Shown: positions 42,493 to 63,675, counted from the stretch's first letter. The stretch is 64,000 nucleotides of DNA from Candidatus Dojkabacteria bacterium (GCA_035444565.1 DAOMOX010000002.1:105335-169334), one strand, 5' to 3'. Program-made: numbers and translations. Notes: generated from the letters alone by a model not told the origin.

Positions 42493-42585
42493 ATTTGACG
42501 TACTGAATCCTGAATATATCTTTCTGAATTCTCTCTTTTCGCCCATGATATAATTCCTGCTAGCTTAATATTAGTTAATAACACA

Positions 42586-45246
42586 ATGAATAACAACTTG
42601 GTTACGAGATTTAGCGAAATTTTCTTCAAACGAAGTAGACTTACAATTCTACTTATAATTTCAGTACTTTTGCTTGGATTCTATTCATATTCAACTCTTC
42701 TGAAGCGAGAAGGTTTTCCAGTAATCAACTTACCAATTATTGTTGTAAATACCCCTTATCTTTCAGGAGATCCAGCAAAGACCGAAGCTGATATAACTGG
42801 GAAGATTTCCTCGAAAATCACAGAAATTGAAGGAGTAAAGGAAATCCAAACCACTTCCACATCAAATCTATCTTCAATTTTTGTCTCGCTTGATGATGGT
42901 ATCACGACTGCAGATGATGCGAAGGACAAGATTGAAAATGAAATATCAAAACTTAATCTAGAATCAGAGCCTATAATAATAGTTCCGAATGCAGCTCTCG
43001 TGGATGGTCAAAATGATCTTGTTTTTTCAATTTATTCAAAAGACTTAACAATCGAACAACTTCAGCAAAAAGCATTGTTGATTGAAACAGAACTTGAGAA
43101 AAGCGATTTGATAAAAGAGGTTAATATTAAAAATCAAATCACTACAGAGTTCGACTTTGCTACCCAGCAAGAGGTCACAGCAACACGTTCATATGCGAGA
43201 TCACTTGTGAAAAATGATGGCGAACTTGAGGCTTATGACTCACTTGATATTGGTGTTGTAAAGAAAAATACAGATGTAGGAACTATTGAGCTATCCGATG
43301 AAGTGAAAGCAATTGTCGAGAGAAGTTTAGAGAAAGAAGAGTTAGATGGAATTAGCGCACTTTATAGCGCAGATCCAGCAACATATCTCAGAGCGCAGAT
43401 ATCTTCCCTAGAATCAAATGCATTAGCTGCGATGATTACAATTTTTGTCATCTTACTGTTGTTTATAAACCTTCGTTCAGCAATTTTATTAGCATTATTC
43501 ATCCCTCTCACACTCGCATCAGTGTTTTTCATCTTCTCAATCTTCGGCTATACATTAAATACAATTTCATTGTTTGCTTTGATTTTAGTACTTGGGCTTT
43601 TCGTAGATGATGGGACAATCATCGTAGAGGCAATCGACTACTACAAAAGGCAAGGCCAGAAAGGTTTCCAAGCTGTCAGAAGTGCAATTAACGATATTGG
43701 AATCGCCGATATCTCAGGAACACTTACAACAGTTTTAGTGTTTCTTCCACTTGTTTTTGTTACTGGAATTTTGGGAGATTTTATAAAAATTCTTCCAATG
43801 ACAGTGATAATCGCTCTATTAGTTTCTCTATTTATCGCCCTAACAATCCTTCCATTTCTCTCTTCGTTCTTAATCAAAGACTTAGACAACAAGAAGAAAA
43901 GCAAAGAGAACATCCTATCAATCATAGTCAACTTCGTTCCAAAACTTATGATTAATTTCTCTGAAAAAAGTGGAAGAACTGTAAAACAAACATTGGAATC
44001 AAGATATTACCGCTTAGGCTTATTCGCCGTCTCATTAATATTAATTGGTATTGGGGGATACTATGCTAGCCAATTAAAGTTTGCATTCTTCGCACCTGCA
44101 AAAGACTCTGATTTGATTACAATTTCAGTTACGAATAAAATTCCTACTGACATTACGACAGCGAAATCTGCCACAACAGAACTCGAAAAATTAGTTGTTG
44201 ATAATTTCTCGGAAGAAATTCAAGAAATTGCCTACCTCGATGCAAATCAAAGAGGTGCTGAGATTAGAGTTTCTTTGAGTCCAATCACTGAGAGAGACAT
44301 TACTGCTGGGGATATTGTTCGAGAAATTAATGAATTAACCAAAGACAATGAAAGCTTAGTAGTAAGCGCTTCTATCGTTTCTGCTGGACCTCCCGTCGCT
44401 CAGTTTCCATTTGCAATGCAACTTTTCTCCGAAAATCAAACTGTCTTAGAAACAAAGTCTGCAGAGATTGCCGAATTCATAAAATCAACAGAACTTGATA
44501 AAGATGTTCAAGTTGAAGATGTAAAGGTTGATTACACCAAAGAAATCCGAAGAAAAGACAATGAAAGATTTGCCGAAATTAGAGTAAAGTTCAATGATAA
44601 ATACGATAGTGCCACATTATTGGAATTACAAGAAATTATAGAAGGTGAATACAACGGTGAGGACAATTCCGAATTCTCTCTTGGATTTGATTTCGGACAA
44701 GAGAGTGAAAATGCAAACTCCTTTAATTCTGTAGTATTTGCAGGATTAATAGCACTAATTGTTATGTATATTTTATTAGTATTGCAGTTCAACTCATTCA
44801 CACAGCCACTACTGATTTTGGTAGCAATACCATTTAGTTTTCCAATTTTATTCCCTGGACTGTTCTACACAGATAATCCAATGAGTTTCTTCGTTGTGAT
44901 TGGTCTTACCGGTCTGATTGGAATCGTAGTTAATAACACTATCATATTGATAGAATATGCCAACGCACAAAGGAAGTCTGGAAAATCCATAATTGACTCA
45001 ATAGCAGAATCAGTGAGATTGAGGACAAGACCGATTTTCACTACATCACTCACAACCATAGCTGGATTACTTCCTTTGGCACTCACTGAACCATTCTGGG
45101 AGCCATTGGCTTTCACTATCATCTTTGGATTAATCTCCAGTGTGATGATGATTGTCATCGCCTTCCCGGTTTACTACTTCTTTGTGGAATCCGCACGAGA
45201 TTTGTTCTACAAGAATGTTAAGAAGTTTAAGATGAGGGGGTTGTAA
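42586..45246 (+). CDS. RND-superfamily transporter (MMPL/AcrB-like; two TM bundles with large extracytoplasmic loops)
   Basis: 886 aa with hydrophobic clusters at about 270-430 and 720-880 and a duplicated domain layout. Confidence 0.5.
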   Translation: MNNNLVTRFSEIFFKRSRLTILLIISVLLLGFYSYSTLLKREGFPVINLPIIVVNTPYLSGDPAKTEADITGKISSKITEIEGVKEIQTTSTSNLSSIFVSLDDGITTADDAKDKIENEISKLNLESEPIIIVPNAALVDGQNDLVFSIYSKDLTIEQLQQKALLIETELEKSDLIKEVNIKNQITTEFDFATQQEVTATRSYARSLVKNDGELEAYDSLDIGVVKKNTDVGTIELSDEVKAIVERSLEKEELDGISALYSADPATYLRAQISSLESNALAAMITIFVILLLFINLRSAILLALFIPLTLASVFFIFSIFGYTLNTISLFALILVLGLFVDDGTIIVEAIDYYKRQGQKGFQAVRSAINDIGIADISGTLTTVLVFLPLVFVTGILGDFIKILPMTVIIALLVSLFIALTILPFLSSFLIKDLDNKKKSKENILSIIVNFVPKLMINFSEKSGRTVKQTLESRYYRLGLFAVSLILIGIGGYYASQLKFAFFAPAKDSDLITISVTNKIPTDITTAKSATTELEKLVVDNFSEEIQEIAYLDANQRGAEIRVSLSPITERDITAGDIVREINELTKDNESLVVSASIVSAGPPVAQFPFAMQLFSENQTVLETKSAEIAEFIKSTELDKDVQVEDVKVDYTKEIRRKDNERFAEIRVKFNDKYDSATLLELQEIIEGEYNGEDNSEFSLGFDFGQESENANSFNSVVFAGLIALIVMYILLVLQFNSFTQPLLILVAIPFSFPILFPGLFYTDNPMSFFVVIGLTGLIGIVVNNTIILIEYANAQRKSGKSIIDSIAESVRLRTRPIFTTSLTTIAGLLPLALTEPFWEPLAFTIIFGLISSVMMIVIAFPVYYFFVESARDLFYKNVKKFKMRGL

Positions 45247-47374: not shown

Positions 47375-47448
47375 TCGGAGCGACTAGACTCGAACTAGCG
47401 ACCTCACGCACCCCATGCGTGCGTTCTAGCCAACTGAACTACGCTCCG
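47375..47448 (-). tRNA. tRNA-Pro (anticodon GGG)
   Basis: Minus-sense CGGAGCG TA GTTC AGTTGGCTA GAAC G CACGC ATGGGGT GCGTG AGGTC GCTAG TTCGAGT CTAGT CGCTCCG A, followed by TTTT. Confidence 0.8.
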
Positions 47449-47555
47449 CTAAATAAATTATACATCCTGAACTTAATTTTTACTAAATGCTTATCAATAA
47501 CATCATTAATCTGGTAAAATCTGTTACGATCTTTGAATGACCGGAGTTAACCTGT

Positions 47556-47879
47556 GGTGACATGGCCAAGCTTGTCCCGCCAAGGCGGGATGAAGTAAGG
47601 CATGGGTCAATCTTTCTAAGATGACCATATTGAAAAAGGAGATAAAAAACATAGCTATTTTAAAAAAGAATTAAAAGAGAGGAGAATAAACTCACCGGAG
47701 GATTCCTCGGATTAAGTGGTGACATGGCCAAGCTTGTCCCGCCAAGGCGGGATGAAGTAAGGCATGGGTCAATCTTTCTAAGATGACCATATTGAAAAAG
47801 GAGATAAAAAACATAGCTATTTTAAAAAAGAATTAAAAGAGAGGAGAATAAACTCACCGGAGGATTCCTCGGATTAAGT
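47556..47879 (+). repeat. Tandem direct repeat, 2 x 162 bp, each unit beginning with a 5' fragment of tRNA-Cys (nt 1-31) carrying a 25-nt D-loop hairpin insertion
   Basis: Units 47556-47717 and 47718-47879 identical: GGTGACATGGCCAAG[cttgtcccgccaaggcgggatgaag]TAAGGCATGGGTC|aatctttctaag... A third unit would start exactly at the intact tRNA-Cys (47880). Confidence 0.8.
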
Positions 47880-47950
47880 GGTGACATGGCCAAGTGGTAA
47901 GGCATGGGTCTGCAAAACCCTTATCCCGGGTTCGATTCCCGGTGTCACCT
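47880..47950 (+). tRNA. tRNA-Cys (anticodon GCA)
   Basis: GGTGACA TG GCC..GGC A TGGGT CTGCAAA ACCCT TATC CCGGG TTCGATT CCCGG TGTCACC T; U33, A37, no encoded CCA. Confidence 0.8.
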
Positions 47951-47952
47951 TT

Positions 47953-48037
47953 GCCGTGGTGGCGGAATTGGTATACGCGCTGGACTTAAAATCCAGTGGC
48001 CTTAACAGCCTTAAGGGTTCGAGTCCCTTCCGCGGCA
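47953..48037 (+). tRNA. tRNA-Leu (anticodon TAA), class II with long variable arm
   Basis: GCCGTGG ... CTGGA CTTAAAA TCCAG T GGC CTTAACA GCC TT AAGGG TTCGAGT CCCTT CCGCGGC A. Confidence 0.75.
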
Positions 48038-48066
48038 GTTGTTTTAATAATAAATGGTGCTTTTTG

Positions 48067-48616: not shown

Positions 48617-48892
48617 TTGGCATTTCACTTACAAAAGTTGTATGATACAGTAATATCATATTACCAGTATTTGAACACTATGTTTACAAACATTGGAGAG
48701 AAAATTAAGAAAGTAAGAAACGATAAAGGGTTGACACAGGAGGAGTTAGCCCAAAAGGCTAATATCTCCTATATAACCCTTGTGAAAATTGAGCAAGGAA
48801 AGGTTGAGAATCCTACAATGAAGACTTTGCAAAAAATTGCAAAGGCATTGGAAATTTCTCTTGATGAAATAGTTAAAAATGTAAAACAATGA
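48617..48892 (+). CDS. XRE-family helix-turn-helix transcriptional regulator (controller of R-M operon), probable true start 48680
   Basis: IGEKIKKVRNDKGLTQEELAQKANISYITLVKIEQGK (HTH_XRE); stop overlaps hsdR start. Confidence 0.65.
   Translation: MAFHLQKLYDTVISYYQYLNTMFTNIGEKIKKVRNDKGLTQEELAQKANISYITLVKIEQGKVENPTMKTLQKIAKALEISLDEIVKNVKQ
48650..48664. promoter_or_regulatory. Operator-like palindrome GTAATAT-C-ATATTAC just upstream of probable XRE start (ATG 48680)
   Basis: Perfect 7-bp inverted repeat. Confidence 0.35.
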
Positions 48893-51279
48893 ATAAAAAT
48901 CAATTATCAGAAACAGACATTAGAACAAAGTTTATTACACCCGCAATTCAAGATGCAGGTTGGAATATTCAAAAGCAAGTGCGAGAGGAAGTCCACTTTA
49001 CTGATGGAAGGATAATTGTTAAAGGAGAAACAGTAAAAAGAGCTAAAGGTAAGAAAGCTGATTATATCCTGTACTACAAATCAAACCTTCCCATTGCAAT
49101 TGTCGAAGCTAAAGACAACAAACACTCGATTGGAGATGGTATGCAACAAGGACTTGATTATGCTGAAATCCTTGATATACCTTTTGTATTCTCAAGCAAT
49201 GGAGATGGTTTCCTAGAACATGATAGAACTATTTCAGAGGGAAAAGTAGAAAGAGAAATATCATTACAGCAATTTCCTTCACCAGAAGAACTTTATCAAC
49301 GTTATAAAATTTGGAAGGGGTTATCTAGCGAGCAAGAACAAATTTTAAAACAAGACTACTACTACTCACCAACAAGTAAGACACCAAGATACTATCAAGA
49401 AATAGCTATCAACAGGACTGTTGAATCTATAGCAAAGGGAAAAGATAGACTTCTTCTTGTAATGGCAACAGGTACAGGGAAAACCTTTACTGCCTTTCAG
49501 ATAATGTGGCGGTTATGGCAAGCAAAGAAAAAGAAAAGAATTCTTTTTGTCGCTGACAGAAATATTCTAGTTGATGATCCGATGAGAAGAGATTTTTCTC
49601 CATTTGGTGAGAAAATGACAAAGATTAATAGACTTAACTTTAATATTCAGAAATACTCTGCATACGAAATTTTTATTGGATTGTATCAAAGCATAACTGG
49701 TTTGGATGAATCCCAAAAAATTTATAAACAGTTTCCAAGAGATTTTTTTGATTTGATAGTCATTGACGAAGCACACAGAGGAAGTGCTTCTGATGATTCT
49801 GCTTGGAGAGAAATATTAGAGTATTTTAACAGTTCGACTCAAGTCGGTATGACTGCTACTCCAAAGCAAGAGCATGGAGCAGATAATATTGAATACTTTG
49901 GTGAACCAGTTTACACATATTCACTAAAACAAGGGATTGAAGATGGTTTTCTTGCCCCTTACAGGGTAATTAGAGTGACTCTTGATACGGATTCAGAAGG
50001 CTTTAGACCTTACACAGGTCAAGTTGATAAGTATGGAAACGAAATTCCAGATGAAGAATATAACGTGAAAGATTTTGATAGAAGAATTGTTATTGATGAA
50101 AGAACAGAAATCATTGCAAGAAAGATTACTGAATTTCTAAAAAATACAGACCGATTCTCAAAAACAATCGTTTTTTGTGTAGATATTGCTCATGCAGAAC
50201 GTATGAGACAAGCTTTAATGAATGAGAATGTTGATCTAGTAAACGAAAATCGAAAATATGTGATGCGAATTACTGGTGATAACGAGGAAGGTAAAAACGA
50301 ATTGGATAACTTTATTGACCCAGAACAAAAATATCCAGTTGTTGTAACTACTTCGAAGCTACTTACAACAGGAGTTGACGCTAAAACTTGTAAATTGATT
50401 GTGCTAGATACAAATATCAACTCAATGACTGAATTTAAACAGATTATTGGCAGAGGTACGAGACTTGACCCTGATTTTGACAAGTATTTCTTTACAATAA
50501 TGGACTTTAGACAGGCTACTAAGTTATTTGCTGACCCTGCATTTGACGGTCCTGCAATAAGCACATCTGAAAAAACAGAAGATGATGAGATTACTCTACC
50601 ATCTGAAGATGAATATGTAGTCACCCCAGAGGAAGCAGAAGCATTAAAAGATTCAGCTGATATTGAATATATAAGTTCAAAAAATGATGTTTCGATAGAT
50701 GGTGCACCTGAAAAGCCTAAGAAGTATTATGTAAATGGTGTTGATGTTGAAGTTATAAATGAAACAGTTCAGTACTATGATGAGAACGGAAAACTTACAA
50801 CAGAATCATTAAGAAGCTATACGAAGAAAAGTCTTATTAAAAGATATAAAACACTTAATGAATTTCTGAATGATTGGAATGATGCTGAAATGAAATCTGC
50901 AATACTAGAGGAGCTTGAGGAACAGGGAATCTTTTTTGAAGAATTGAAAAAAGAAGTTGGAAAAGAATTAGATCCTTTCGATATGATTCTACACATTGCT
51001 TTTGATAAACCACCTCTTACACGTAGAGAAAGAGCTAATAATGTCATTAAGAGAAACTATTTTGAAAAGTATGGAGAGGAAGCTCGAAAAGTTTTACAGG
51101 CACTTCTTGATAAATACTCCGATGAAGGAATTATGGCACTTGAAGATATGGAAGTACTGAAAGTTCAGCCAATAAATCAGTTTGGTTCTCCTGTAGAAAT
51201 CGTGAGTTATTTCGGAGGTAGAGAGCAATATGTTGAAGCAGTCCAACAAATGGAACAATTAATTTATATGCAAGCTTAA
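48889..51279 (+). CDS. hsdR: Type I restriction enzyme R subunit (short form)
   Basis: HsdR N-terminal nuclease region (KADYILYY...IVEAKD), MATGTGKT Walker A, IVIDEAHRG DEAH box. Confidence 0.8.
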   Translation: MNKNQLSETDIRTKFITPAIQDAGWNIQKQVREEVHFTDGRIIVKGETVKRAKGKKADYILYYKSNLPIAIVEAKDNKHSIGDGMQQGLDYAEILDIPFVFSSNGDGFLEHDRTISEGKVEREISLQQFPSPEELYQRYKIWKGLSSEQEQILKQDYYYSPTSKTPRYYQEIAINRTVESIAKGKDRLLLVMATGTGKTFTAFQIMWRLWQAKKKKRILFVADRNILVDDPMRRDFSPFGEKMTKINRLNFNIQKYSAYEIFIGLYQSITGLDESQKIYKQFPRDFFDLIVIDEAHRGSASDDSAWREILEYFNSSTQVGMTATPKQEHGADNIEYFGEPVYTYSLKQGIEDGFLAPYRVIRVTLDTDSEGFRPYTGQVDKYGNEIPDEEYNVKDFDRRIVIDERTEIIARKITEFLKNTDRFSKTIVFCVDIAHAERMRQALMNENVDLVNENRKYVMRITGDNEEGKNELDNFIDPEQKYPVVVTTSKLLTTGVDAKTCKLIVLDTNINSMTEFKQIIGRGTRLDPDFDKYFFTIMDFRQATKLFADPAFDGPAISTSEKTEDDEITLPSEDEYVVTPEEAEALKDSADIEYISSKNDVSIDGAPEKPKKYYVNGVDVEVINETVQYYDENGKLTTESLRSYTKKSLIKRYKTLNEFLNDWNDAEMKSAILEELEEQGIFFEELKKEVGKELDPFDMILHIAFDKPPLTRRERANNVIKRNYFEKYGEEARKVLQALLDKYSDEGIMALEDMEVLKVQPINQFGSPVEIVSYFGGREQYVEAVQQMEQLIYMQA

Positions 51280-51285
51280 ATCACT

Positions 51286-52716
51286 ATGGCACTATCAAAC
51301 CTCATAAAAACAATTCAGAATATAATGAGAAAAGATACAGGAGTTGATGGAGATGCTCAGCGAATCTCTCAGCTTACTTGGATGCTTTTCCTCAAGATAT
51401 TTGATGATAAAGAAAGTGAATATGAATTATTGGATTCAAATTATAAGTCCCCAATTCCAGAAGAACTTCGTTGGAGAAATTGGGCAGTAGAAGATACTGG
51501 AATTACAGGTGATGAATTGATAGATTTTATCAACGAAAAGCTTTTCCCTGGTCTAAAAAATATGAGTTGGCAGAAAGGAGATGATCCTAAGGGGTTTATT
51601 GTCAAAGAAATCTTTCAAGATAGCTACAATTATATGAAGTCAGGAACATTGATGAGGCAAGTTATCAATGTGATAGATAACGAAATTGACTTCAATAATA
51701 GTAAGCAAACTCATATTTTTAATGATATTTATGAGAAAATTTTAAAAGACCTCCAAAGTGCAGGAAACGCTGGCGAGTACTATACCCCACGAGCTGTAAC
51801 CAAGTTTGTTGTTGAGATGGTAGATCCACAACTCGGAGATAAGATTCTAGACCCTGCATGTGGTACAGGCGGATTTTTAATCGATTCACTTGAGCATATC
51901 AGAAACAATCAGGTTAAAACACCAGAAGAAGAAAAGCTATTGCAGAATTCAATTTATGGAACTGAAAAGAAGCCTCTTCCTCATATGCTTGTTATGACCA
52001 ACTTGATTCTACATGGCATTGAAGCTCCCCTAAATGTAAGGCGAGGAAATTCGTTAGCAAATTCTATTAGAGATATTACTCAAAAAGATCGTGTTGACGT
52101 TGTTATTACAAATCCTCCATTTGGTGGAATAGAACAAGATATGATCAAAAAAGGTTTTCCTACTCAATTCCAAACTAGTGAGACTGCAGACCTATTCTTA
52201 ATTATGATTATTGAGCTTCTGAAATCTGGTGGAAAAGCAGGAATAGTCTTACCAGATGGCTCACTTACTGGGGATGGGGTGAAAGCAAGAATTAGGGAAA
52301 AACTAATAACTGATTGCAACCTACATACGATTGTTAGGTTACCCAATTCGGTATTCGCACCATATGCGACTGTTGCTACAAATCTACTTTTTTTCACAAA
52401 AGGTGAATCAACAAAAGAAGTTTGGTATTACGAGCATACATTACCAGAAGGACAAAAATCATATTCAAAGACAAAAACTATTAATTTTGAAGAGTTTAAG
52501 CCAATACAAGAATGGTGGATTGATAGGAAAGAAAGTGAGGTGTCTTGGAAAGTAACTATCGATGATCTTCAAGAGACTGGCTTCAACTTAGATATTAAGA
52601 ATCCAAACAAGAAGGAGGATACTATTGAATTTACATCTGCTGAATTAATTAAGAAATTAGAAGATTCATTTGCAGATAGTAGAAAGCTACTTGAGGAAAT
52701 TAAAAAGGAATTATGA
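51286..52716 (+). CDS. hsdM: Type I R-M N6-adenine methyltransferase subunit
   Basis: DPACGTGGFLI motif I, ITNPPFGG motif IV. Confidence 0.85.
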   Translation: MALSNLIKTIQNIMRKDTGVDGDAQRISQLTWMLFLKIFDDKESEYELLDSNYKSPIPEELRWRNWAVEDTGITGDELIDFINEKLFPGLKNMSWQKGDDPKGFIVKEIFQDSYNYMKSGTLMRQVINVIDNEIDFNNSKQTHIFNDIYEKILKDLQSAGNAGEYYTPRAVTKFVVEMVDPQLGDKILDPACGTGGFLIDSLEHIRNNQVKTPEEEKLLQNSIYGTEKKPLPHMLVMTNLILHGIEAPLNVRRGNSLANSIRDITQKDRVDVVITNPPFGGIEQDMIKKGFPTQFQTSETADLFLIMIIELLKSGGKAGIVLPDGSLTGDGVKARIREKLITDCNLHTIVRLPNSVFAPYATVATNLLFFTKGESTKEVWYYEHTLPEGQKSYSKTKTINFEEFKPIQEWWIDRKESEVSWKVTIDDLQETGFNLDIKNPNKKEDTIEFTSAELIKKLEDSFADSRKLLEEIKKEL

Positions 52717-55403
52717 AACAGGAGTCATTATATGAAAATATTATTGAATGGTTAAAAGATAAGCCTTTATTTGTGCAAGACTCTGCTCGCAGGCTACTGC
52801 ACAATTCGGTTTTATCTGACAAGGACAAGGATGATATATTTATTTTACTTAAAAAAGAATGTGGTTTTGAGGGAATAGAACTAGTAAGCCAAGCAGTGAC
52901 ATCCTCTGACATCCCCTCAACAATTGCAAGCAATCAAGGATATCCGAAGTTATTATCAATCAAAAACCCTGTAAATATTAATGCCTTAAATACAAATGCT
53001 GTACTAAACTTTGATCCCAATGGTATTACTGTTGTATATGGGAAAAATGGATCTGGGAAATCAAGTTATTCAAGAATTTTAAAGCGCTTTTGTTGGAGTA
53101 GACATAAGGATACTAACATACTGCCAAATATTTATAGTTCCAATAATAATCCTCAATCTGTTGTTGTTGAGACAGATACCAATGAGCATAATTTAAAAAT
53201 AGCCGATCAAATATCAGTATCTGAATTAAATTCTATCTATGTATTCGATTCAAATTGTTCGTCTGTATATGTGAATAATGAAACTGAGACTCAATATAAA
53301 CCTGCAGAAATTGATCTTATACAAGATCTTGTAAACCTATTAAAGGATTTAAATCAACAGGTGAATAATGAAGAAGATAAATTAGTTACTACCAAACCAG
53401 AGCTGTCTTTTGAGGATTACCGTAACACTAATATTTATAGTTGGTATTCAAATATTGAAAAAGAATCATCTGAGAATATTTCATCTAAACTAACGATTAG
53501 TAAAGAGAATCGGAAGAGACACGGCGATTTAGAGGAGTTGCTCGCTAAAAGTGATCCAAGCAAGGAAAATCAAGATCTAATACAAAAGAAAACACGATAT
53601 GAGACCTTAAGAAATGAATTACTTAGAATTGAGAAAGCGTTTTCTAAGCTGAACTTTCAAAATATTAGGAAACTGAAAAACGATTTTAATATAAAGAAAG
53701 GTGCATACGAACTGTCGAAATCAATGATTGAAAAATATAATAAGTTAGCGGGCATAGGCTCTGAGTCTTGGAAACTATTATGGCAAGCTGCTAAGAAGTA
53801 TGCTACAACTGAAGTACATCCTCACGTGTCTGAGTATCCCTCTGGCACAAGTGCCAATGTATGTATGCTCTGTCAGCAGGATTTAGATAATGAAGCAAAG
53901 AAAAAGCAAATAGACTTTGACTCTTTTATCCAGAGTAATGCCAGTGCAGAATTTGATCAAGCGAAAAAAACTGTTTTAGATAAATACAACCAAATTGTCA
54001 ATGTAAAAATCACTGCCTCACAAGATACAATAGTAGAGATAAAACAAGACGTAGATGGATTTGAGGCTAAATATAATACATTTGAAACAGAATTTAAGAA
54101 AGTACAAGCTAGCTGGCTCAAATATTTAGATGAAAATGAAGCTACAAATGAGATCCTAATATCTGCTTATCAGGAAAAAGAAGAAGTATCAGAAAGTAAA
54201 GTAACACTCGAAGAAGTGAAAAGTGATCAAGTTCAAGTAATTGATAGTGTTATATATAAAGAGGAATTGAAGTGCATTTCCGATTTAATCGCTAAAGAGG
54301 TAGAAAATATAGAAGAAAAGATTCTCGCAAATAAGAAATTATTAGAAGATAGACCAACTTTGGAAAAGGAAAAAAAAGAGTTAGATGCATTGCTCTACCT
54401 TGAATCAAAGAAAACCGAACTTCTGGGATATTTAACAGAGTCTTCTCTTAAAGAAAGATATAAGTCTTGCAAAGCTAAGCTTAATACATCTCAATACTCA
54501 AAAAAAATAGGGGACTTATTAGAAACTAATGGTATTAATTTGTTGAAAACTGAATTTACATCTGTACTTAATTTCTTCAATACTGATCTTGCTTCAAAAG
54601 TTTGCTTAGAAAAAACCAGAACAGATAGCGGTACTACTTTCCACCAATTGGGATTCTCAACAATTAACGGAAGTATGAATTCTGTTTTGAGTGAAGGTGA
54701 ACAGAAAATAATTTCACTCTCTGGGTTCTTAGCCGAATGTACCATTGGTGGTGCGAAGAACACGATCGTATTCGATGATCCTGTAAATTCTCTTGATCAA
54801 GATTATCGAGAGGCTATAGCTGATAAATTAATAGAGCTTTGTAAGGACAGACAAATAATAGTATTTACTCACGACCTTTATTTTCTTAGCTTACTTATGT
54901 ATGGTTCAAAGGAAACTAATGGAGAAGAGTGTAAATCTTTGTCTTTAGAATTTGCGGAGAGTAGTGGAATCGTCACTGATGAAGTACCATTCTTAGCTAA
55001 GAATGTTCAACAAAGAATTGATAATATCAAAAGTGAACTTAATAAATTATCTTCGTTAACAAGTGGAAAAGATACCGCATTAGATTCAATTCGGAAGAAA
55101 ATGCGTTTTCTTGTCGAGAAATCAATAGAAGAGATACTTTCAAATAAAGCAATCCAAAGATTTAGCAAGAACATTACGGTCAAGAAAGACCTACTGGCCA
55201 GTTATGTGGTCACAGACAAAAATGATATTAACTACTTGATTGATTTATATGGAAAGTATTCTATTACAGAACATGATGGGGGCTTCGAGATTGTCCCAAA
55301 ACTTCCAGATGAAACTGCTATTAGAAACGATCTAACTGAGTTTTCAACTTGGAAGGATAAATTTAAAACTAAACTCGATACGTATAAAAATAATGGAATA
55401 TAA
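52713..55403 (+). CDS. RloC/PrrC-like ABC ATPase with long coiled coil and CxxC zinc hook, located between hsdM and hsdS (candidate anticodon nuclease or other R-M-linked effector)
   Basis: Walker A VVYGKNGSGKSS, central CMLCQQD in predicted coiled coil, ABC signature LSEGEQ, Walker B IVFDDPVNSLD, H-loop IVFTHD, about 160-aa C-terminal domain of unknown function. Confidence 0.45.
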   Translation: MKQESLYENIIEWLKDKPLFVQDSARRLLHNSVLSDKDKDDIFILLKKECGFEGIELVSQAVTSSDIPSTIASNQGYPKLLSIKNPVNINALNTNAVLNFDPNGITVVYGKNGSGKSSYSRILKRFCWSRHKDTNILPNIYSSNNNPQSVVVETDTNEHNLKIADQISVSELNSIYVFDSNCSSVYVNNETETQYKPAEIDLIQDLVNLLKDLNQQVNNEEDKLVTTKPELSFEDYRNTNIYSWYSNIEKESSENISSKLTISKENRKRHGDLEELLAKSDPSKENQDLIQKKTRYETLRNELLRIEKAFSKLNFQNIRKLKNDFNIKKGAYELSKSMIEKYNKLAGIGSESWKLLWQAAKKYATTEVHPHVSEYPSGTSANVCMLCQQDLDNEAKKKQIDFDSFIQSNASAEFDQAKKTVLDKYNQIVNVKITASQDTIVEIKQDVDGFEAKYNTFETEFKKVQASWLKYLDENEATNEILISAYQEKEEVSESKVTLEEVKSDQVQVIDSVIYKEELKCISDLIAKEVENIEEKILANKKLLEDRPTLEKEKKELDALLYLESKKTELLGYLTESSLKERYKSCKAKLNTSQYSKKIGDLLETNGINLLKTEFTSVLNFFNTDLASKVCLEKTRTDSGTTFHQLGFSTINGSMNSVLSEGEQKIISLSGFLAECTIGGAKNTIVFDDPVNSLDQDYREAIADKLIELCKDRQIIVFTHDLYFLSLLMYGSKETNGEECKSLSLEFAESSGIVTDEVPFLAKNVQQRIDNIKSELNKLSSLTSGKDTALDSIRKKMRFLVEKSIEEILSNKAIQRFSKNITVKKDLLASYVVTDKNDINYLIDLYGKYSITEHDGGFEIVPKLPDETAIRNDLTEFSTWKDKFKTKLDTYKNNGI

Positions 55404-56568
55404 AATCCAGAAAGTAAAACTCAAGGATGTTTGTAAAATAGAAAAAGGCAAGATAGGTATTACGAAAGCAGTAAAAGGAGAATATCCTTTGGTTGTAACT
55501 GCTGAAGAAAGATTAAGCCACAACGAATGGCATTTCAATGAACCTGCGACAATTGTACCCCTTGTCTCTTCTACTGGTCACGGGCATGCAAGTATAAAAA
55601 GGCTACATTACGCAGATGGTAAATATGCTGTTGGAAATATACTTGCTACTCTTATTCCAATAGATCATGACTATCTTAATGCTAAATATCTTTATGTGTA
55701 TCTAACAATAAATAAAGAGGAATTATTGGTATCGCAAATGACTGGGGCAGCTAACGTCACTCTAACACTTACTAGATTAGCAGATGTAGAAATTGAAATT
55801 CCCGATTATGCCACTCAACTAAAAGTTATAAACCGTTATGAAGATTCTGAAAATTTCAAGAATCAGATGGGTTCACAAATAGAAGTTAGATCCCAGTTAA
55901 TTGAAAATCTCCGCCAACAAATTCTCAATGATGCGATAACAGGTAAATTATCAGAAAAATGGAGGAGAGACAATCTGGGAGACGTAATTACTGACATAGG
56001 TACAGGTTGGAAAATATGTAGGTTATTTGAAGTGGCAGACTTTTTTAATGGCAAGGCTCATGAACCTATTGTCTCTGAGAATGGTAAATTTATATTAATT
56101 AACTCTAAATTTGTTTCGAACTCAGGTGATACAAAGATAAAAATGGTAACGGAAAGGCTAACACCACTTCAAAGTGGAGATATTGCATTTGTTATGAGTG
56201 ATGTACCAGGTGGAAGAGCACTTGCAAGAACATATTTAGTTGAACGAGATGATAAATATTCCCTTAATCAAAGGATTTGTGGTTTTAAAGCAAAAAGTTG
56301 TATTTTACCCGCTTTCTTGAATGTAATTCTGAATAGAAATGATTATTTTTTATCTTTTGATGATGGAAAAAAGCAAACAAATTTAAGAAAAGACCAAATC
56401 ATACAGTTTGAATTTTCTCTTCCTTCAATTTCAGAACAACACTATATTGTGGAGGGAATAAAATCTCTATTTATAAAGATCGATCGAATAAATCAAATAA
56501 ACAATGAGAATCTGACCATGGTTGATCTTCTGAACAAAGTATCACTTAAAGAATTGTTCGGCAATTAA
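55393..56568 (+). CDS. hsdS: Type I R-M specificity subunit
   Basis: Two TRD halves with conserved spacer helices (…LRQQILNDAITGKL…, …VEGIKSLFIKIDRINQI…). Confidence 0.75.
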   Translation: MEYKIQKVKLKDVCKIEKGKIGITKAVKGEYPLVVTAEERLSHNEWHFNEPATIVPLVSSTGHGHASIKRLHYADGKYAVGNILATLIPIDHDYLNAKYLYVYLTINKEELLVSQMTGAANVTLTLTRLADVEIEIPDYATQLKVINRYEDSENFKNQMGSQIEVRSQLIENLRQQILNDAITGKLSEKWRRDNLGDVITDIGTGWKICRLFEVADFFNGKAHEPIVSENGKFILINSKFVSNSGDTKIKMVTERLTPLQSGDIAFVMSDVPGGRALARTYLVERDDKYSLNQRICGFKAKSCILPAFLNVILNRNDYFLSFDDGKKQTNLRKDQIIQFEFSLPSISEQHYIVEGIKSLFIKIDRINQINNENLTMVDLLNKVSLKELFGN

Positions 56569-56585
56569 GTTATAATAATATACTT

Positions 56586-57791
56586 ATGGCAACAACTATA
56601 AAATGCGAACAATGCGGAAATGTAATTGAAATTACGGATGCAATCCGCAAAGAACTTGAGGCTAAAGTACTTCAAGAGACTCAAGCAAAACATGATGCTG
56701 AAATAAAAGCTTTAAAAGAAAAACAAGAGCAACTTGAAGAGCAAAAGCAAAAGGAAATTGAACAAGTTAAACAAGAAATATCAGAATCAGCAAAAAAAGA
56801 TGCAATAGAAAAAGTCCGCAAAGAATATGATACGAAGATCAATTCAACTAAAGAAGAGTCGGAAGAAAGAGAAAAACAAAACCAAGAATTACAAAAACAA
56901 GTTTCGGATCTCATTAAACAACTTAGAGAATCAAAGGATACAGAGGGAAAATTAAAGATACAATTTGAGAAACAGTTGCTAGAGGAACAAGACAATATTA
57001 AGCAAGGAGCTAAAAAAGAAGCACAAGAAGAACTAAGCCTACAAATAGCACAAAAGGATAAGATGCTCGAAGATCTTAAAAAACAACTTCAAGAAGCACA
57101 AAGGAAAGCTCAACAAGGTTCTCAGCAACTTCAAGGTGAAGTACAGGAACTTGCTCTTGAAGACCAACTAAAACAAGCATTTATATACGATGAAGTTTCA
57201 GAAGTACCTAAAGGTATAAATGGAGCAGATGTGATACAGACCGTAAGAACCAATTTCGGTACTTCTTGCGGAACTATTGTTTGGGAATCTAAAAATACCA
57301 AAGCATGGTCTCAACAATGGGTTGCAAAGCTAAAAGAAGATACAAGAACATTAAAAGCGGATATATCAGTTTTAGTATCATCTGTACTACCAGAAGGAAT
57401 TCAATCATTTGCTCAAATAGACGGAGTATGGGTGTGCGATATGAAGAGTGCAATACCATTAGCATTTGCTCTCAGAGAGAGGATTATCGCCGTTAGAAAT
57501 ATTCAAGAGGCAAATAAAGGAAAAGCAACTAAAGCGGAGGTTGTATACAATTACTTAATAAGTAATGATTTTAAACAGCGAATTGAAGTTTGGATTGAGT
57601 ATTTCAAATCAAGGAAGGAAGAGTTAGATATAGAGAAGCGGTATTTCATGAAGAAGTGGGATAAAGAAGATAAGAATATTATGAAAGTCCTCCATAACAC
57701 AGCAGGAATGTATGGCGATTTACAGGGACTTATTGGTACTGCTTTACCGAAGGTTCAGTATCTGGAACTACCAGAAGAGATACATAATTAA
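56586..57791 (+). CDS. Hypothetical coiled-coil protein with N-terminal CxxC and C-terminal globular domain (DUF2130-like), R-M associated
   Basis: MATTIKCEQCGNV..., long KE-rich coiled coil, C-terminal GADVIQTVRTNFGTSCGTIVWESKNTKAW... Confidence 0.35.
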   Translation: MATTIKCEQCGNVIEITDAIRKELEAKVLQETQAKHDAEIKALKEKQEQLEEQKQKEIEQVKQEISESAKKDAIEKVRKEYDTKINSTKEESEEREKQNQELQKQVSDLIKQLRESKDTEGKLKIQFEKQLLEEQDNIKQGAKKEAQEELSLQIAQKDKMLEDLKKQLQEAQRKAQQGSQQLQGEVQELALEDQLKQAFIYDEVSEVPKGINGADVIQTVRTNFGTSCGTIVWESKNTKAWSQQWVAKLKEDTRTLKADISVLVSSVLPEGIQSFAQIDGVWVCDMKSAIPLAFALRERIIAVRNIQEANKGKATKAEVVYNYLISNDFKQRIEVWIEYFKSRKEELDIEKRYFMKKWDKEDKNIMKVLHNTAGMYGDLQGLIGTALPKVQYLELPEEIHN

Positions 57792-60093: not shown

Positions 60094-60744
60094 TTAGTTA
60101 GGTACATTTAGTGCTAGTACAACCTTTCCGTTTATCAGAAGATCTTCATTCTCAAAAATAAATATCGGTTGGTGCTTTTGATTTGAAGAATTCGGTTTTA
60201 GTACGATAGAATTTTCCGTCTTATTATAAACTTTAATAGTTGCACCCCCATTAATAATGGCAAGTACTATATCACCCTCATTTATTTGCGCTTCTTTGTC
60301 AATAACTGCAAAACTGTTATCACTTAGAAGTGTTGCATAGGGGGACTTTTTACTCGGAGCATATTGCTGATTCATAGAGTCCCCATCTACCTTTACGGCA
60401 AATAAATTGCCATTATTTTTTACCACAGTTGAGTCAACCTCAATAATCCCCATTCTTTCTTCTTCCGCATTCGCAAGTGGCTGTCCTGCATTAGCAACTC
60501 CTAATAGAGGAATTCTAGTAAATTTTAAGCTTTCTACTAATTGCAGAGTTCTCTTACCAATAGAGTTATCTTTGGTTATAAAACCTTCGTTCTCGAGTAC
60601 TTTTACATGGTAATGTACGCCTGCCCTTGATTCTATATCAACGTTATCAGCGATCTCCTCTAATGTTGGCGACACTGAATTTTCGGCAAAATACTCACGA
60701 ATAAAAGCAAGAATCTGTTTTTGTTTTTGAGTTAGTTGAGCCAT
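60094..60744 (-). CDS. LexA-like repressor (wHTH plus S24 self-cleaving peptidase domain)
   Basis: N-terminal LexA-type wHTH (QKQILAFIREYFAENSVSPTLEEIA), AVKVDGDSMNQ Ser motif and downstream INGKVV Lys region. Confidence 0.65.
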   Translation of the reverse strand: MAQLTQKQKQILAFIREYFAENSVSPTLEEIADNVDIESRAGVHYHVKVLENEGFITKDNSIGKRTLQLVESLKFTRIPLLGVANAGQPLANAEEERMGIIEVDSTVVKNNGNLFAVKVDGDSMNQQYAPSKKSPYATLLSDNSFAVIDKEAQINEGDIVLAIINGGATIKVYNKTENSIVLKPNSSNQKHQPIFIFENEDLLINGKVVLALNVPN

Positions 60745-60852
60745 ACTTTGACATTTGTTAAATATTCTGTTAAGCTACATTCTAACATCTTCTAACTTTT
60801 GTTTCAAGTGTTAATAACTGCCCAAACTACTTTAATTAATATATTTATTCAA

Positions 60853-61098
60853 ATGGGTAAGTCGAATATTCATGTTACGAAAAGACAGGACGGTAAGTGG
60901 CAGGACAAAAAGGCAGGTGGAGATAAAGCCTCTGGTGTATTTAATACTCAGAAAGAAGCTGAAAAGCATGCAAAGCAAATATTAAGGAATCAGGGCGGAG
61001 GTGAAGTTAGGATTCACGGACTTGATGGGAAGATAAGGGATTCTGACACAGTAAAACCTGCAAATGATCCTAACCCACCAAAAGATAAAGTACATTAA
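60853..61098 (+). CDS. DUF2188-family small protein (ATG 60853 rather than upstream start of the 99-aa ORF)
   Basis: MGKSNIHVTKRQDGKWQDKKAGGDKASGVFNTQKEAEKHAKQILRNQGGGEVRIHGLDGKIRDSDT matches DUF2188 pattern. Confidence 0.5.
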   Translation: MGKSNIHVTKRQDGKWQDKKAGGDKASGVFNTQKEAEKHAKQILRNQGGGEVRIHGLDGKIRDSDTVKPANDPNPPKDKVH

Positions 61099-61109
61099 TA
61101 AGCATTAAC

Positions 61110-61607
61110 ATGAAAGAATTTATTGAAAACATATCTTTAATTCAATGGATTATCGGCGGCATTATTACTGCATTAATCCCTTTTCTAATCTTTATTCGTA
61201 AATACGTAATTTTACAATTTAGGTTTGCGAATAATCTAAGGAGAAAGATTTATTTTTTAAGATTAGAGGATTCAGCTCCACTAATTTCAGAAAGAGAACT
61301 AATCAGCAAGACAAAGCTATTTAATGTGGAAAAAGATATATACACAGTATCTGATGACCCAAAAGTACTCCAACTTATGGAAAAACATAGCCTATTCGTA
61401 ATTGGCTATGATGCTAACTATAGCAAGTATAAGGAGCTGATAGATAAAGCACAGGAGAACAATACACCAATCATAATTTATGCAAAACAGGGAGAGATAG
61501 AAGATTCAAAACATTGGGATCTCTTCAATAACTACATTTATTGTGATGTAGCCAACACAAGTAGTAGATTAACAGTAATTATTTTAAATACCATGTATAT
61601 TGTCTAA
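61110..61607 (+). CDS. Hypothetical protein with N-terminal TM helix plus about 130-aa soluble domain, first/second gene of the nucleotidyltransferase operon
   Basis: IQWIIGGIITALIPFLIFI helix; 11-nt gap from DUF2188 gene, 2-nt gap to next gene. Confidence 0.35.
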   Translation: MKEFIENISLIQWIIGGIITALIPFLIFIRKYVILQFRFANNLRRKIYFLRLEDSAPLISERELISKTKLFNVEKDIYTVSDDPKVLQLMEKHSLFVIGYDANYSKYKELIDKAQENNTPIIIYAKQGEIEDSKHWDLFNNYIYCDVANTSSRLTVIILNTMYIV

Positions 61608-61609
61608 AA

Positions 61610-62668
61610 ATGAATGATAATAAAATGAATATTAATAGCCTCTTGGAGGAATTTGTGTCTTCAAATCTTTCACCAACAGAGAGTGAGCGAAAAGAAGTTA
61701 GTGCAAAGTATGATGAGTTATCATCAATTTTGAAGGGGCGAAATTTCATATCAGGCTCTTATGGACGATTTACATCCATCACTCCTTTGCATGATGTTGA
61801 TGTGATATGGGAATTACCAGAAGAAACAGTTACAAACAATATTCGTAAATCTATTTCTTTAAAAGTAAGTCCAGATGAGCTTGATGTTAAAAATATACTT
61901 GAGAGTCTTGCAAAAAGGCTACGTGAGGAATATGAAAAGTTTGGTGTCAAGGTGAACGTACTTTCCGAAACACACTCTGTGACTATTGAATTTCTGAACA
62001 GCTCTCATGAGTTTACAATAGATGTTGTTCCTGCAGTGCCTATTACAGAAAAAAATGAATTTGGGTTACCATTGTATATTGTTCCCGAAATTATAAAAGA
62101 CTCGCACAGAGTGAGAAAAGATAAATACTCAAGTAAAGAACCGATTATATGGATTAAAACCGATCCCGAAGGATACATAGAGGAGGCAAGTAAAGCTAAC
62201 GAAGAGAATCAGTCATTTAGAAAATCCGTAAAATTCTTAAAGGGATGGAGAAGAAAATCGAAAGAGGGAGAAGATAACTTTAAACTTAAATCATTCCATA
62301 TAGAACAATATGTCCTGCACTTTCTTCGCGAGAATCACCAGAAAAACACATGGGAAGTAGTTACTACTTTTTTTGATGAAGTTGAACAGATTATTTCAAG
62401 TCCACAAATCCCAGATAGAGCTAATGATACAATATTCATTGATGCCTACATTTCTGAATTAACGGAAGAGGAAACTAGGTTAATTTTGACAAACGCACAG
62501 TTAGCTACAAATCTTCTCAATAAAATCGAACAGGCACAATCTGAGTCGGAAGTGAAGGAATACCTACAGGAAATCTCGCTTATTCAAAAAACTAATAAAA
62601 ATACTATTTATCCAATCACCAAAGATCATGCACCAACAAAACCATGGTATTCAGGTGATTTCAGATAA
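61610..62668 (+). CDS. cGAS/DncV-like nucleotidyltransferase (CD-NTase-like, Pol-beta NTase fold)
   Basis: GSYGRFTSITPLHDVDVIWEL (GS...DxD), third acidic residue in IDVVPAVP, helical-domain motif SVKFLKGWRRK (LKxW). 352 aa, typical CD-NTase size. Confidence 0.5.
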   Translation: MNDNKMNINSLLEEFVSSNLSPTESERKEVSAKYDELSSILKGRNFISGSYGRFTSITPLHDVDVIWELPEETVTNNIRKSISLKVSPDELDVKNILESLAKRLREEYEKFGVKVNVLSETHSVTIEFLNSSHEFTIDVVPAVPITEKNEFGLPLYIVPEIIKDSHRVRKDKYSSKEPIIWIKTDPEGYIEEASKANEENQSFRKSVKFLKGWRRKSKEGEDNFKLKSFHIEQYVLHFLRENHQKNTWEVVTTFFDEVEQIISSPQIPDRANDTIFIDAYISELTEEETRLILTNAQLATNLLNKIEQAQSESEVKEYLQEISLIQKTNKNTIYPITKDHAPTKPWYSGDFR

Positions 62669-63383
62669 ATCGCAAATTCTCGAATACTTAGAATTAGCAC
62701 AACCAAACCTCAAGCTAGAATCTAGTAGTTTGATAAAAGGTAGATTGGTGTTTGCAATGAGAGAAGTTGAAAGAGGTTATGAACTACTCAATCCTTCTAT
62801 ACATTATGATGATCCACGCATTATCCAAGATGAATATTTTATTTCAATAGAGTGGAATATCATTAACAAGCCCTACCCCGTAGTAAAGGAAGATGGAAAT
62901 AGGATTTGTGATTCATTTAAGTGGCTATCAAAAAAGGTTACTTGGATAAGCCACTTAAGAGATCTACATCTTTACGAGGAAGATAACAGTCTATGTCTTT
63001 GCACTAATACAGAATACGAAATACGCTATCCAGATGGTATAAAAATAAACGAACTTGTTGAAGAGCTAATTATTCCGTTTTTTTATTATCAATCCTATCT
63101 CCAGAGAAACCTAAAAGAACCATATTCAGGTAGAGGTCATGGTGTATTAGGTATTTTGGAATACTTAGAAGAGAATAGGCAAATTCCACAATTAGACAGA
63201 ATTACGTTTGAGATATTGCAGAGAGAATATCCTCAGATATTTAATTCAATTAGAGTGAAGAAACCATCTAGTAGTCGAACGTGCATATGTGGCAGTAATC
63301 GAAAGGGAAAGAAATGTCATTGGTCTGCAACAAGAGGTGCTAAACTGCTCTATGAATATATACAAGATGCTAATCCCTCATGA
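62628..63383 (+). CDS. Hypothetical protein with C-terminal SEC-C zinc-binding motif, downstream partner of the nucleotidyltransferase (candidate effector/sensor)
   Basis: C-terminal CICGSNRKGKKCH (SEC-C CxCGS..K..KCH); overlaps cyclase gene by 41 nt (alternative start 62757). Confidence 0.35.
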   Translation: MHQQNHGIQVISDKSQILEYLELAQPNLKLESSSLIKGRLVFAMREVERGYELLNPSIHYDDPRIIQDEYFISIEWNIINKPYPVVKEDGNRICDSFKWLSKKVTWISHLRDLHLYEEDNSLCLCTNTEYEIRYPDGIKINELVEELIIPFFYYQSYLQRNLKEPYSGRGHGVLGILEYLEENRQIPQLDRITFEILQREYPQIFNSIRVKKPSSSRTCICGSNRKGKKCHWSATRGAKLLYEYIQDANPS

Positions 63384-63675
63384 CGTTCTTGATTTAAGAA
63401 TTTCCTTAATTGCAATAACCATTATTTGGAATGGCAACAAAATCAACCCCATCAAACAGCCATAATTTCTAAACCCCGAATTATAATAAACACTCGCCCC
63501 TTTTCCTCTTTTATAAATCATAACAATCGCCCTAACAACTTAAATCTAAAGTTGGAAGCTCAGATAAGAACTTCCACTTATACTCAAACTCCTTTAAACA
63601 TGAGATAATCGTATCAATAAAGGGAAGGAGTCGTTCGTACATAGTACGATCGCCCCGAAAACTTATTCGAATTTT

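Follow-up and report, generated by a model that had tools for sequence, protein, structure and literature searches.

What kind of immune unit arises where a LexA-type repressor gene stands back to back with an operon for a cGAS/DncV-like nucleotidyltransferase (CD-NTase)? This question is raised by five genes found in a 64,000-nt stretch of a Candidatus Dojkabacteria genome (GCA_035444565.1, DAOMOX010000002.1:105335-169334), which is referred to here as the window and in which all positions are counted. An earlier note on this DNA had regarded the unit as an undescribed signalling system. According to the present analysis, it is instead likely to be a type II-short (E2-only) operon of the antiphage signalling system based on cyclic oligonucleotides (CBASS), which comprises the genes for a DUF2188 protein, a 1TM effector, a CD-NTase and an E2-like protein, lies in a Dojkabacteria defence island, and forms a divergent pair with the LexA of the lineage. 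The type II-short assignment is based on the matches of PADLOC models to the transmembrane (TM) effector, the cyclase and the E2 protein. Related loci gathered for comparison are designated by L-numbers (L001 and so on).

The five open reading frames (ORFs) that had been placed in this interval are all confirmed by the ORF map and the sequence (Table 1). Reading the four plus-strand genes as an operon was correct: the DUF2188 and TM genes are separated by 11 nt and the TM and CD-NTase genes by 2 nt, while the CD-NTase and E2 genes overlap by 41 nt. The length given for the intergenic region, 108 bp, holds as well. An upstream TTG at position 60799 was considered as the start of the DUF2188 gene and rejected, and the ATG at 60853 is conserved and agrees with the gene calls. 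Pfam recognizes LexA_DNA_bind and Peptidase_S24, DUF2188, and SMODS domains in the interval.

The CD-NTase, already proposed in the earlier note to be of the cGAS/DncV-like type, matches the PADLOC cyclase model PDLC00785 (1.2e-74) in addition to Pfam SMODS. The residues G49-S50, D62, D64 and D138 and the K211/W213 motif are invariant among 20 homologues, which confirms the catalytic residues previously pointed out, although not their spacing, as the actual signature is GS-x11-DxD and not GS-x9. The AlphaFold (AF2) model of the protein (predicted local distance difference test score, pLDDT, 84.5; predicted template modelling score, pTM, 0.84) presents a disordered C-terminal tail (residues 328-352) ending in KPWYSGDFR. 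When this model is searched with Foldseek, the closest structures are Escherichia coli CdnC (7e-14) and Pseudomonas aeruginosa CdnD (1e-11), then mammalian cGAS (~2e-10); the cyclic-trinucleotide synthase CdnD is also among the matches, after these top CdnC and CdnD matches. Sequence searches of the PDB retrieve the same enzymes, and the best NCBIfam model is CBASS_cyclase_b, with a score under its cutoff. The protein thus combines the Pol-beta residues (GS...DxD...D) with the cGAS/DncV-like fold, as expected of a CBASS cyclase.

The product of the last gene is a 251-aa protein in which the C-terminal SEC-C zinc motif reported before, CICGSNRKGKKCH, is indeed present (residues 219-231). Pfam gives no match for this protein, and neither do sequence searches of the PDB nor a Foldseek search with its structure model, which is weaker than that of the CD-NTase (pLDDT 73.9). 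Nevertheless, seven PADLOC models for CBASS E2 or E1-E2 proteins match it, the best with 4.8e-23. At the structural level, hits of the UBC fold, Cap2 among them, were also obtained for the E2 model, in support of this fold. An alignment of 44 distant E2 homologues from the related loci shows that the D-[LM]-H114...C123 motif, H171, and the zinc ligands C219, C221, C230 and H231, which form a C-terminal knuckle of the pattern CxC-x8-CH, are invariant or nearly so. Type II-short systems are recognized by a stand-alone E2-like gene adjoining the CD-NTase gene, which is the arrangement found here, and no E1 or JAB domain was detected in the operon or its flanks.

A second line of evidence comes from the cyclase tail. 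A P-[WY]-small-residue motif closes almost all the E2-linked CD-NTases (the exceptions are L109 and L121); among the other relatives, it appears in none of the long AGS-C-type ones and only in a few short ones without a detected E2. Such a distribution would be expected if E2 had the tail of the CD-NTase as its substrate. Moreover, the 41 nt shared by both genes (62628-62668) are dual-coding, as they encode the conserved tail of the cyclase and the conserved N-terminus of the E2 protein, and this overlap is kept in relatives with 60% identity (L002 and L004). A ~368-aa protein without Pfam or PADLOC matches, absent from the window, recurs directly 3' of the E2 gene in L002 (8759-9865), L003, L040, L042, L054, L103, L108 and L109, and could be an uncharacterized accessory gene.

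As for the effector, the TM protein matches the PADLOC models CBASS Effector '1TM' (9.9e-10) and C3a59 TM (3e-13). Hydropathy and an alignment of 30 homologues define one N-terminal TM helix (residues ~8-30) followed by a conserved cytosolic domain of ~120 aa, for which Pfam and NCBIfam give no match. The same alignment reveals the motifs IGY, P[VI]IVYA and CNTPLRLxSDxF. An effector of a recognized class, as corresponds to a CBASS operon, is thus adjacent to the cyclase, and in sister loci this slot is taken by NucC.

These results bear directly on the central claim of the earlier note, namely, that the unit is a nucleotide-signalling defence system of an entirely new category, with partners unrelated to the effectors and regulators of CBASS. 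The note had found the TM partner unlike known effectors and the 251-aa partner unlike any CBASS regulator, E2 included, which is what the missing matches would suggest if only Pfam (for both proteins) and the PDB sequence searches (for the 251-aa protein) were considered. However, the PADLOC models derived from CBASS systems match the TM effector, the cyclase and the E2 protein with values from 1e-9 to 1e-74, a result counted as refuting this view; the E2 fold of the 251-aa protein is supported and its catalytic Cys and His are invariant; and E2-only CBASS is a published class with more than 600 systems. A new type of system is hence hardly credible.

Type II-short CBASS has been found in 616 genomes, and its E2 cleaves the C-terminus of the CD-NTase and links to it covalently, an action shown experimentally for the Serratia E2-CBASS (PMC12948482). 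The CdnG-E2 system of Serratia marcescens shares with the operon of the window the order CD-NTase followed by a stand-alone E2, the absence of E1 and JAB, the single effector, the invariant catalytic Cys of E2, and a CD-NTase tail motif that tracks E2. In contrast to SmE2 (~18 kDa), the E2 of the window has 251 aa, an N-terminal extension and the invariant C-terminal zinc knuckle. In addition, the cyclase does not seem to belong to clade G, which is typical although not strictly defining for type II-short CBASS (74% of cases), as its nearest solved relatives are CdnC and CdnD. Its tail reads P-W-Y-S-G-D-F-R instead of ending in Gly-Gly, and the only Gly within residues 328-352 is G349, three residues from the end. 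Other differences with the Serratia system are the LexA regulator and the host, a bacterium of the candidate phyla radiation (CPR). The type III CBASS of E. coli MS115-1 (CdnC) and P. aeruginosa (CdnD), which use NucC, provide the closest solved CD-NTase structures and sequences, but the unit described here has no HORMA or TRIP13, shows E2 regulation instead, and uses a 1TM effector and not NucC.

NucC is a nuclease activated by cyclic tri-AMP (cA3), and it is the effector in the sister operons L002, L004, L019, L113 and L121. Because of the affinity of the cyclase to CdnC and CdnD and the use of this cA3-activated effector by sister operons, the best guess for the signal is a cyclic trinucleotide, with cyclic tri-AMP as the most likely class.

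The divergent gene encodes the regulator, and the earlier description of this protein as a LexA-like repressor with winged helix-turn-helix (wHTH) and S24 peptidase domains is well founded. Pfam detects both LexA_DNA_bind (1.6e-13) and Peptidase_S24 (4.3e-19), and the full-length protein reaches 119.7 bits against the TIGR00498 lexA equivalog, above the cutoff of 110.95. The Ala86-Gly87 cleavage site, Ser123 (in GDSMN) and Lys171 (in ATIK) are conserved in the LexA alignment. The exact sequence is named 'transcriptional repressor LexA [Candidatus Dojkabacteria bacterium]' at NCBI. Compared with canonical SOS LexA, the protein shares the domain architecture, the catalytic residues, the equivalog score above cutoff and apparently autoregulatory repeats, whereas the candidate operator is not a classical palindrome and the adjoining cargo is an abortive-infection operon.

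The CBASS systems regulated by CapH/CapP (Lau et al., bioRxiv 10.1101/2022.04.27.489752) also have a divergent upstream, damage-responsive repressor which is inactivated by proteolysis, and DUF2188 can be their first downstream gene. Those systems rely on an XRE-type HTH repressor and a separate ImmA/IrrE-like metallopeptidase activated by single-stranded DNA (ssDNA). This two-protein arrangement is not that of the window, where a single self-cleaving polypeptide, presumably activated by RecA filaments, is found instead. A sister locus with 62% identity, L002, does use a CapH/CapP pair (2.9e-9 and 1e-11) together with NucC (2e-75) and the same cyclase and E2 models, and its CapH/CapP genes occupy the divergent slot held by LexA in the window.

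The intergenic region contains the candidate operator. In a footprint alignment with L008 and L009, whose proteins are just 80-84% identical to those of the window, the ~50 bp proximal to lexA are nearly invariant, whereas the DUF2188-proximal part has drifted. Both CTAACA and its reverse complement, TGTTAG, repeat in the conserved block, and the candidate plus-strand promoter is kept as TTGACT-17-TAAGCT in both loci. The inverted repeat TGTTA-N10-TAACA highlighted by the earlier note is present, and it overlaps the -10 boxes of lexA and of the candidate operon promoter, but it is not significant on its own: it is the single such site in 64 kb, 0.30 would be expected by chance, and at least one appeared in 28 of 100 shuffles. 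In addition, its spacing ranges from N9 to N13 in L010 and L167, with CTGTTAGGA-N13-TACTAACAG as the L010 equivalent. For these reasons, it was rejected as a stand-alone palindromic operator, and tandem CTAACA repeats with inverted copies are favoured.

This arrangement, with an inverted TGTTAG upstream and, between the -10 box and the ATG, tandem CTAACA repeats spaced by 12-13 bp, is also found in the lexA promoters of L010, L013a, L165 and L167. In total, five Dojkabacteria lexA promoters other than that of the window carry such repeats. In the whole window, TAACA-N7/8-TAACA appears at three sites against 0.44 expected, a number reached in only one of 100 shuffles. As a result, the comparative evidence for a candidate operator overlapping both divergent promoters can be considered good. 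When the intergenic region was inspected visually for a GAAC-N4-GTTC box of the Gram-positive type, just a weak TAAC-N4-GTTT came up. The other two tandem sites (Table 1) are possible additional LexA targets. The first of them, ~140 bp upstream of an operon that encodes a GDSL lipase (~63676), MazG, an S51 peptidase and a NUDIX protein (genes known from L001), hints at a small local LexA regulon.

To establish how far these associations extend, metagenomes and GTDB genomes were scanned with the CD-NTase alignment, and all ORFs were searched with the proteins of the window. The five-gene unit recurs intact at 80-98% identity in L001, L008, L009, L016 and L093. Among relatives with ~60% identity, the CD-NTase-E2 pair is kept and the effector is NucC. 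Since these relatives exchange the effector for NucC and, in L002, the regulator for CapH/CapP, the effector-CD-NTase-E2 core is, judging from its gene content, modular, with both regulator and effector exchangeable. In L002, a 91-aa ORF without family match (5905-6180) lies in the position of DUF2188, between CapH and NucC.

The scan produced 155 loci, grouped into 125 non-redundant CD-NTase clusters, 82 of which extend 2 kb or more upstream. In 27 of these 82 clade members (33%), a LexA-like gene is located within 3.5 kb upstream, distributed as 11 of 27 E2-type, 14 of 47 long AGS-C-type and 2 of 8 other systems; a CapH-like gene is found instead in 5 of the 82. LexA-like genes number 33 in 324 kb of proximal upstream DNA and only one in 607 kb of the other flank, a 62-fold enrichment (binomial p=1.7e-14). 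Seventeen of the 33 are co-directional with the CBASS genes and 16 divergent, and in L030, L051, L065, L066, L078, L094 and L143 the co-directional gene overlaps the next CBASS gene or lies within 3 nt of it, which places both in the same operon. All 10 representatives tested are full-length proteins with wHTH and S24 domains, 6 of them above the LexA equivalog cutoff, and the Ser/Lys dyad is kept in nearly all the CBASS-linked proteins. Named hosts include Saccharibacteria, Woesebacteria, Peregrinibacteria, Moraniibacteriota, Minisyncoccales, Termititenax, Zixibacteria, Acidobacteriota, and a gammaproteobacterial metagenome-assembled genome (MAG).

The CD-NTase clade itself, judging from L096-L164, is strikingly concentrated in CPR/Patescibacteria (Saccharibacteria, Woese-, Davies-, Moranii-, Kaiser-, Uhr-, Peregrini- and Magasanikbacteria, and WWE3), and is also present in Alpha- and Gammaproteobacteria, Bacteroidota, Ignavibacteriota, Acidobacteriota and two archaeal MAGs.

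According to a neighbour-joining tree, the CBASS-linked LexA-like regulators are polyphyletic, with a large Cys-Gly clade, a NucC-linked clade and a Woesebacteria clade, and the LexA of the window nests among ordinary Dojkabacteria LexAs, which flank repair genes, restriction-modification (R-M) genes or OLD-type nucleases. This last observation raises the possibility that, the E2-type CBASS being real, LexA is simply the housekeeping SOS repressor, controlling its own gene, beside an inserted cassette that has its own LexA-independent promoter. The LexAs with which it groups (45-67% identity) do not flank CBASS, but DNA-repair genes (L014), type IIG R-M and DUF3892 genes (L010), or OLD-type nucleases (L013). 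Furthermore, within the intergenic region it is on the side of lexA that the operator repeats are clearest, and the region as a whole is a defence island next to tRNA genes in which cassettes accumulate. Nevertheless, just 108 bp separate the two start codons, and the only likely place for a plus-strand promoter is the conserved block and not the DUF2188-proximal part. The dedicated CapH/CapP pair in the LexA slot of L002, the recurrence of the lexA/DUF2188 divergent pair in L166, and the enrichment of LexA-like genes in this slot across the clade, often within the same operon, also argue against a chance adjacency. It is on account of the clade-wide enrichment that this explanation has been down-weighted, and it is considered unlikely. 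Our reading, drawn from comparative genomics, is that LexA-family proteins have repeatedly come to fill the regulator slot in this CBASS clade, the one in the Dojkabacterium being the LexA of its own lineage.

The LexA-like ORFs of L021, L036, L037, L042, L051, L054, L078, L103, L108, L109 and L128 carry Cys-Gly in place of Ala-Gly where self-cleavage is predicted. The proteins of this clade score 60-78 bits, under the LexA equivalog cutoff, as expected of dedicated paralogues.

It could also be argued that the repressor controls the operon but senses a signal other than RecA-ssDNA, such as a phage protein, or is cleaved independently of RecA. RecA-independent LexA-like regulators such as IrvR do exist (PMC7101444), and many of the CBASS-linked proteins belong to the divergent Cys-Gly clade below the cutoff. 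However, the protein of the window is itself a LexA of the canonical kind, which has Ala-Gly at the cleavage site and scores above the cutoff, and the second operator-like site precedes the MazG/NUDIX operon, a cargo typical of SOS-like regulation. This alternative therefore seems decidedly improbable, preferable only to that of a wholly new system.

The DUF2188 protein is assigned to its family by Pfam (PF09954, 1.9e-21) and also matches the PADLOC candidate system PDC-S16 (5e-24). Its gene adjoins that of LexA in the window, L054, L065, L078, L143, L160 and L166, and a CapH-like gene in L046/47 and L118; that is, wherever it is found among these loci, it is an immediate neighbour of the regulator gene. 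The lexA/DUF2188 pair of L166 has no adjoining TM effector. DUF2188 and DUF3892 operons under CapH/CapP control have been reported earlier (Lau et al., bioRxiv 10.1101/2022.04.27.489752), so that the protein is no longer a partner without known links, as it had been presented. Based on its consistent position beside the regulator and on that precedent, DUF2188 is best viewed as part of a damage-responsive regulatory cassette and not of the CBASS core. Among Dojkabacteria, lexA orthologues divergent from DUF3892 (L010:6606-7627) or from DUF2188 (L166:172-1171) were also observed, pairings that mirror the CapH/CapP-DUF2188/DUF3892 cassettes of Lau et al.

The following mechanism can be proposed. 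LexA would bind the CTAACA/TGTTAG repeats in the lexA-proximal half of the intergenic region, as suggested by comparative footprinting, and repress lexA as well as the CBASS operon. RecA-ssDNA filaments, generated upon DNA damage or when a phage replicates, would stimulate self-cleavage of LexA at Ala86-Gly87 through the Ser123/Lys171 dyad, residues that are all present, and thereby raise the expression of the operon. The E2 protein, via Cys123, would process and covalently engage the disordered tail of the CD-NTase, whose motif co-varies with E2, and prime or regulate the enzyme. Upon infection, the CD-NTase would synthesize its cyclic oligonucleotide, which may bind the cytosolic domain of the 1TM effector and lead to membrane damage and aborted infection. 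The DNA-damage switch analogous to CapH/CapP suggested in the earlier note is plausible in this context, in view of the CapH/CapP genes in the same position in L002 and the upstream LexA-like genes in 27 of 82 clade members.

While the type of system is known, its LexA-regulated variant is probably undescribed. In the literature to mid-2026, the damage-responsive regulators reported beside immune operons are CapW/BrxR, CapH+CapP and CapK+CapS, with no mention of LexA/S24. No description of an association of CBASS, CD-NTase or SMODS with LexA/S24 was found in the searchable literature, outside which many subscription papers remain, so a prior report is possible. LexA control of the operon, supported by comparative genomics, appears to be the new element of the finding.

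A broader proposal, which is put forward tentatively and with slightly less than even confidence, is that self-cleaving repressors of the LexA family constitute a widespread, still uncatalogued fourth class of dedicated damage-responsive regulators of immune operons, together with CapW/BrxR, CapH+CapP and CapK+CapS. This class would include a Cys-Gly clade travelling with E2- and AGS-C-type CBASS through many CPR phyla and other bacteria, often with DUF2188, while in reduced CPR genomes such as that of the Dojkabacterium the host LexA would have been co-opted, with CBASS joining the SOS regulon. If true, it would tie CBASS expression directly to the RecA/LexA SOS pathway via a simple one-protein switch. 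LexA-like genes in the slot of about one third of the clade are found with both E2- and AGS-C-type operons, with NucC as well as 1TM effectors, and in hosts as diverse as CPR, Acidobacteriota, Zixibacteria and a gammaproteobacterial MAG. The CPR/Patescibacteria are ultrasmall episymbionts, and knowledge of their immune repertoires and SOS operators is poor; the comparative data supply a candidate operator for the LexA of Dojkabacteria.

Table 1. Features of the LexA-CBASS unit and its surroundings in the window
Feature	Position	Strand	Remarks
lexA-like repressor gene	60094-60744	-	216 aa; wHTH and S24 peptidase
Divergent regulatory (intergenic) region	60745-60852	.	108 bp; sequence and footprint alignment
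DUF2188 gene	60853-61098	+	81 aa; first operon gene, regulator-proximal
CBASS 1TM effector gene	61110-61607	+	165 aa; PADLOC, hydropathy, alignment
CD-NTase gene	61610-62668	+	352 aa; PADLOC, Pfam SMODS, structure model
CBASS E2-like gene	62628-63383	+	251 aa; PADLOC E2 models
Candidate operon promoter, TTGACA-17-TAAGCT	60748-60776	+	Read from sequence; weak -10 box under scan threshold
Candidate LexA operator, tandem TAACA-N7-TAACA	60756-60772	-	Between lexA -10 box and lexA ATG
Inverted repeat, TGTTA-N10-TAACA	60768-60787	+	Overlaps lexA -10 and candidate operon -10 boxes
lexA promoter-like site, TTGAAA-17-TAGAAT	60779-60807	-	TG extension; consensus scan, 10/12 matches
Second tandem TAACA-N7-TAACA site	63521-63537	+	Intergenic, between E2 stop and next operon; outside reported interval
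Third TAACA-N7-TAACA site	42579-42595		Overlaps start codon of RND efflux permease ORF
tRNA-Pro, tRNA-Cys, tRNA-Leu cluster	47375-48038		Left island edge
Type I R-M HsdR	48889-51279		
Type I R-M HsdM	51286-52716		
PDC-S06 AAA ATPase	52713-55403		5e-149; embedded between HsdM and HsdS
Type I R-M HsdS	55393-56568		
DUF2130 protein	56586-57791		
GmrSD_N-Schlafen/AlbA_2 fusion	ends 60090		PADLOC HEC-05/PDC-M55C

The LexA-CBASS unit comes after a tRNA cluster, which is likely an integration hotspot, and the genes for a type I R-M system, a DUF2130 protein and a GmrSD-Schlafen fusion, a setting typical of a defence island in this CPR genome.

In a defence island on another Dojkabacteria contig (L013:7001-11401), two lexA paralogues are separated by 3 kb. 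Judging from their setting, LexA-type regulators may also control defence genes other than CBASS. One of these lexA genes heads an operon with genes for a KTSC protein, an Old/GajA-like AAA-TOPRIM nuclease (8.5e-38) and a 343-aa protein, and genes for Vsr, a C5-methylase, a FokI-like nuclease and AbiEii are found near the pair.

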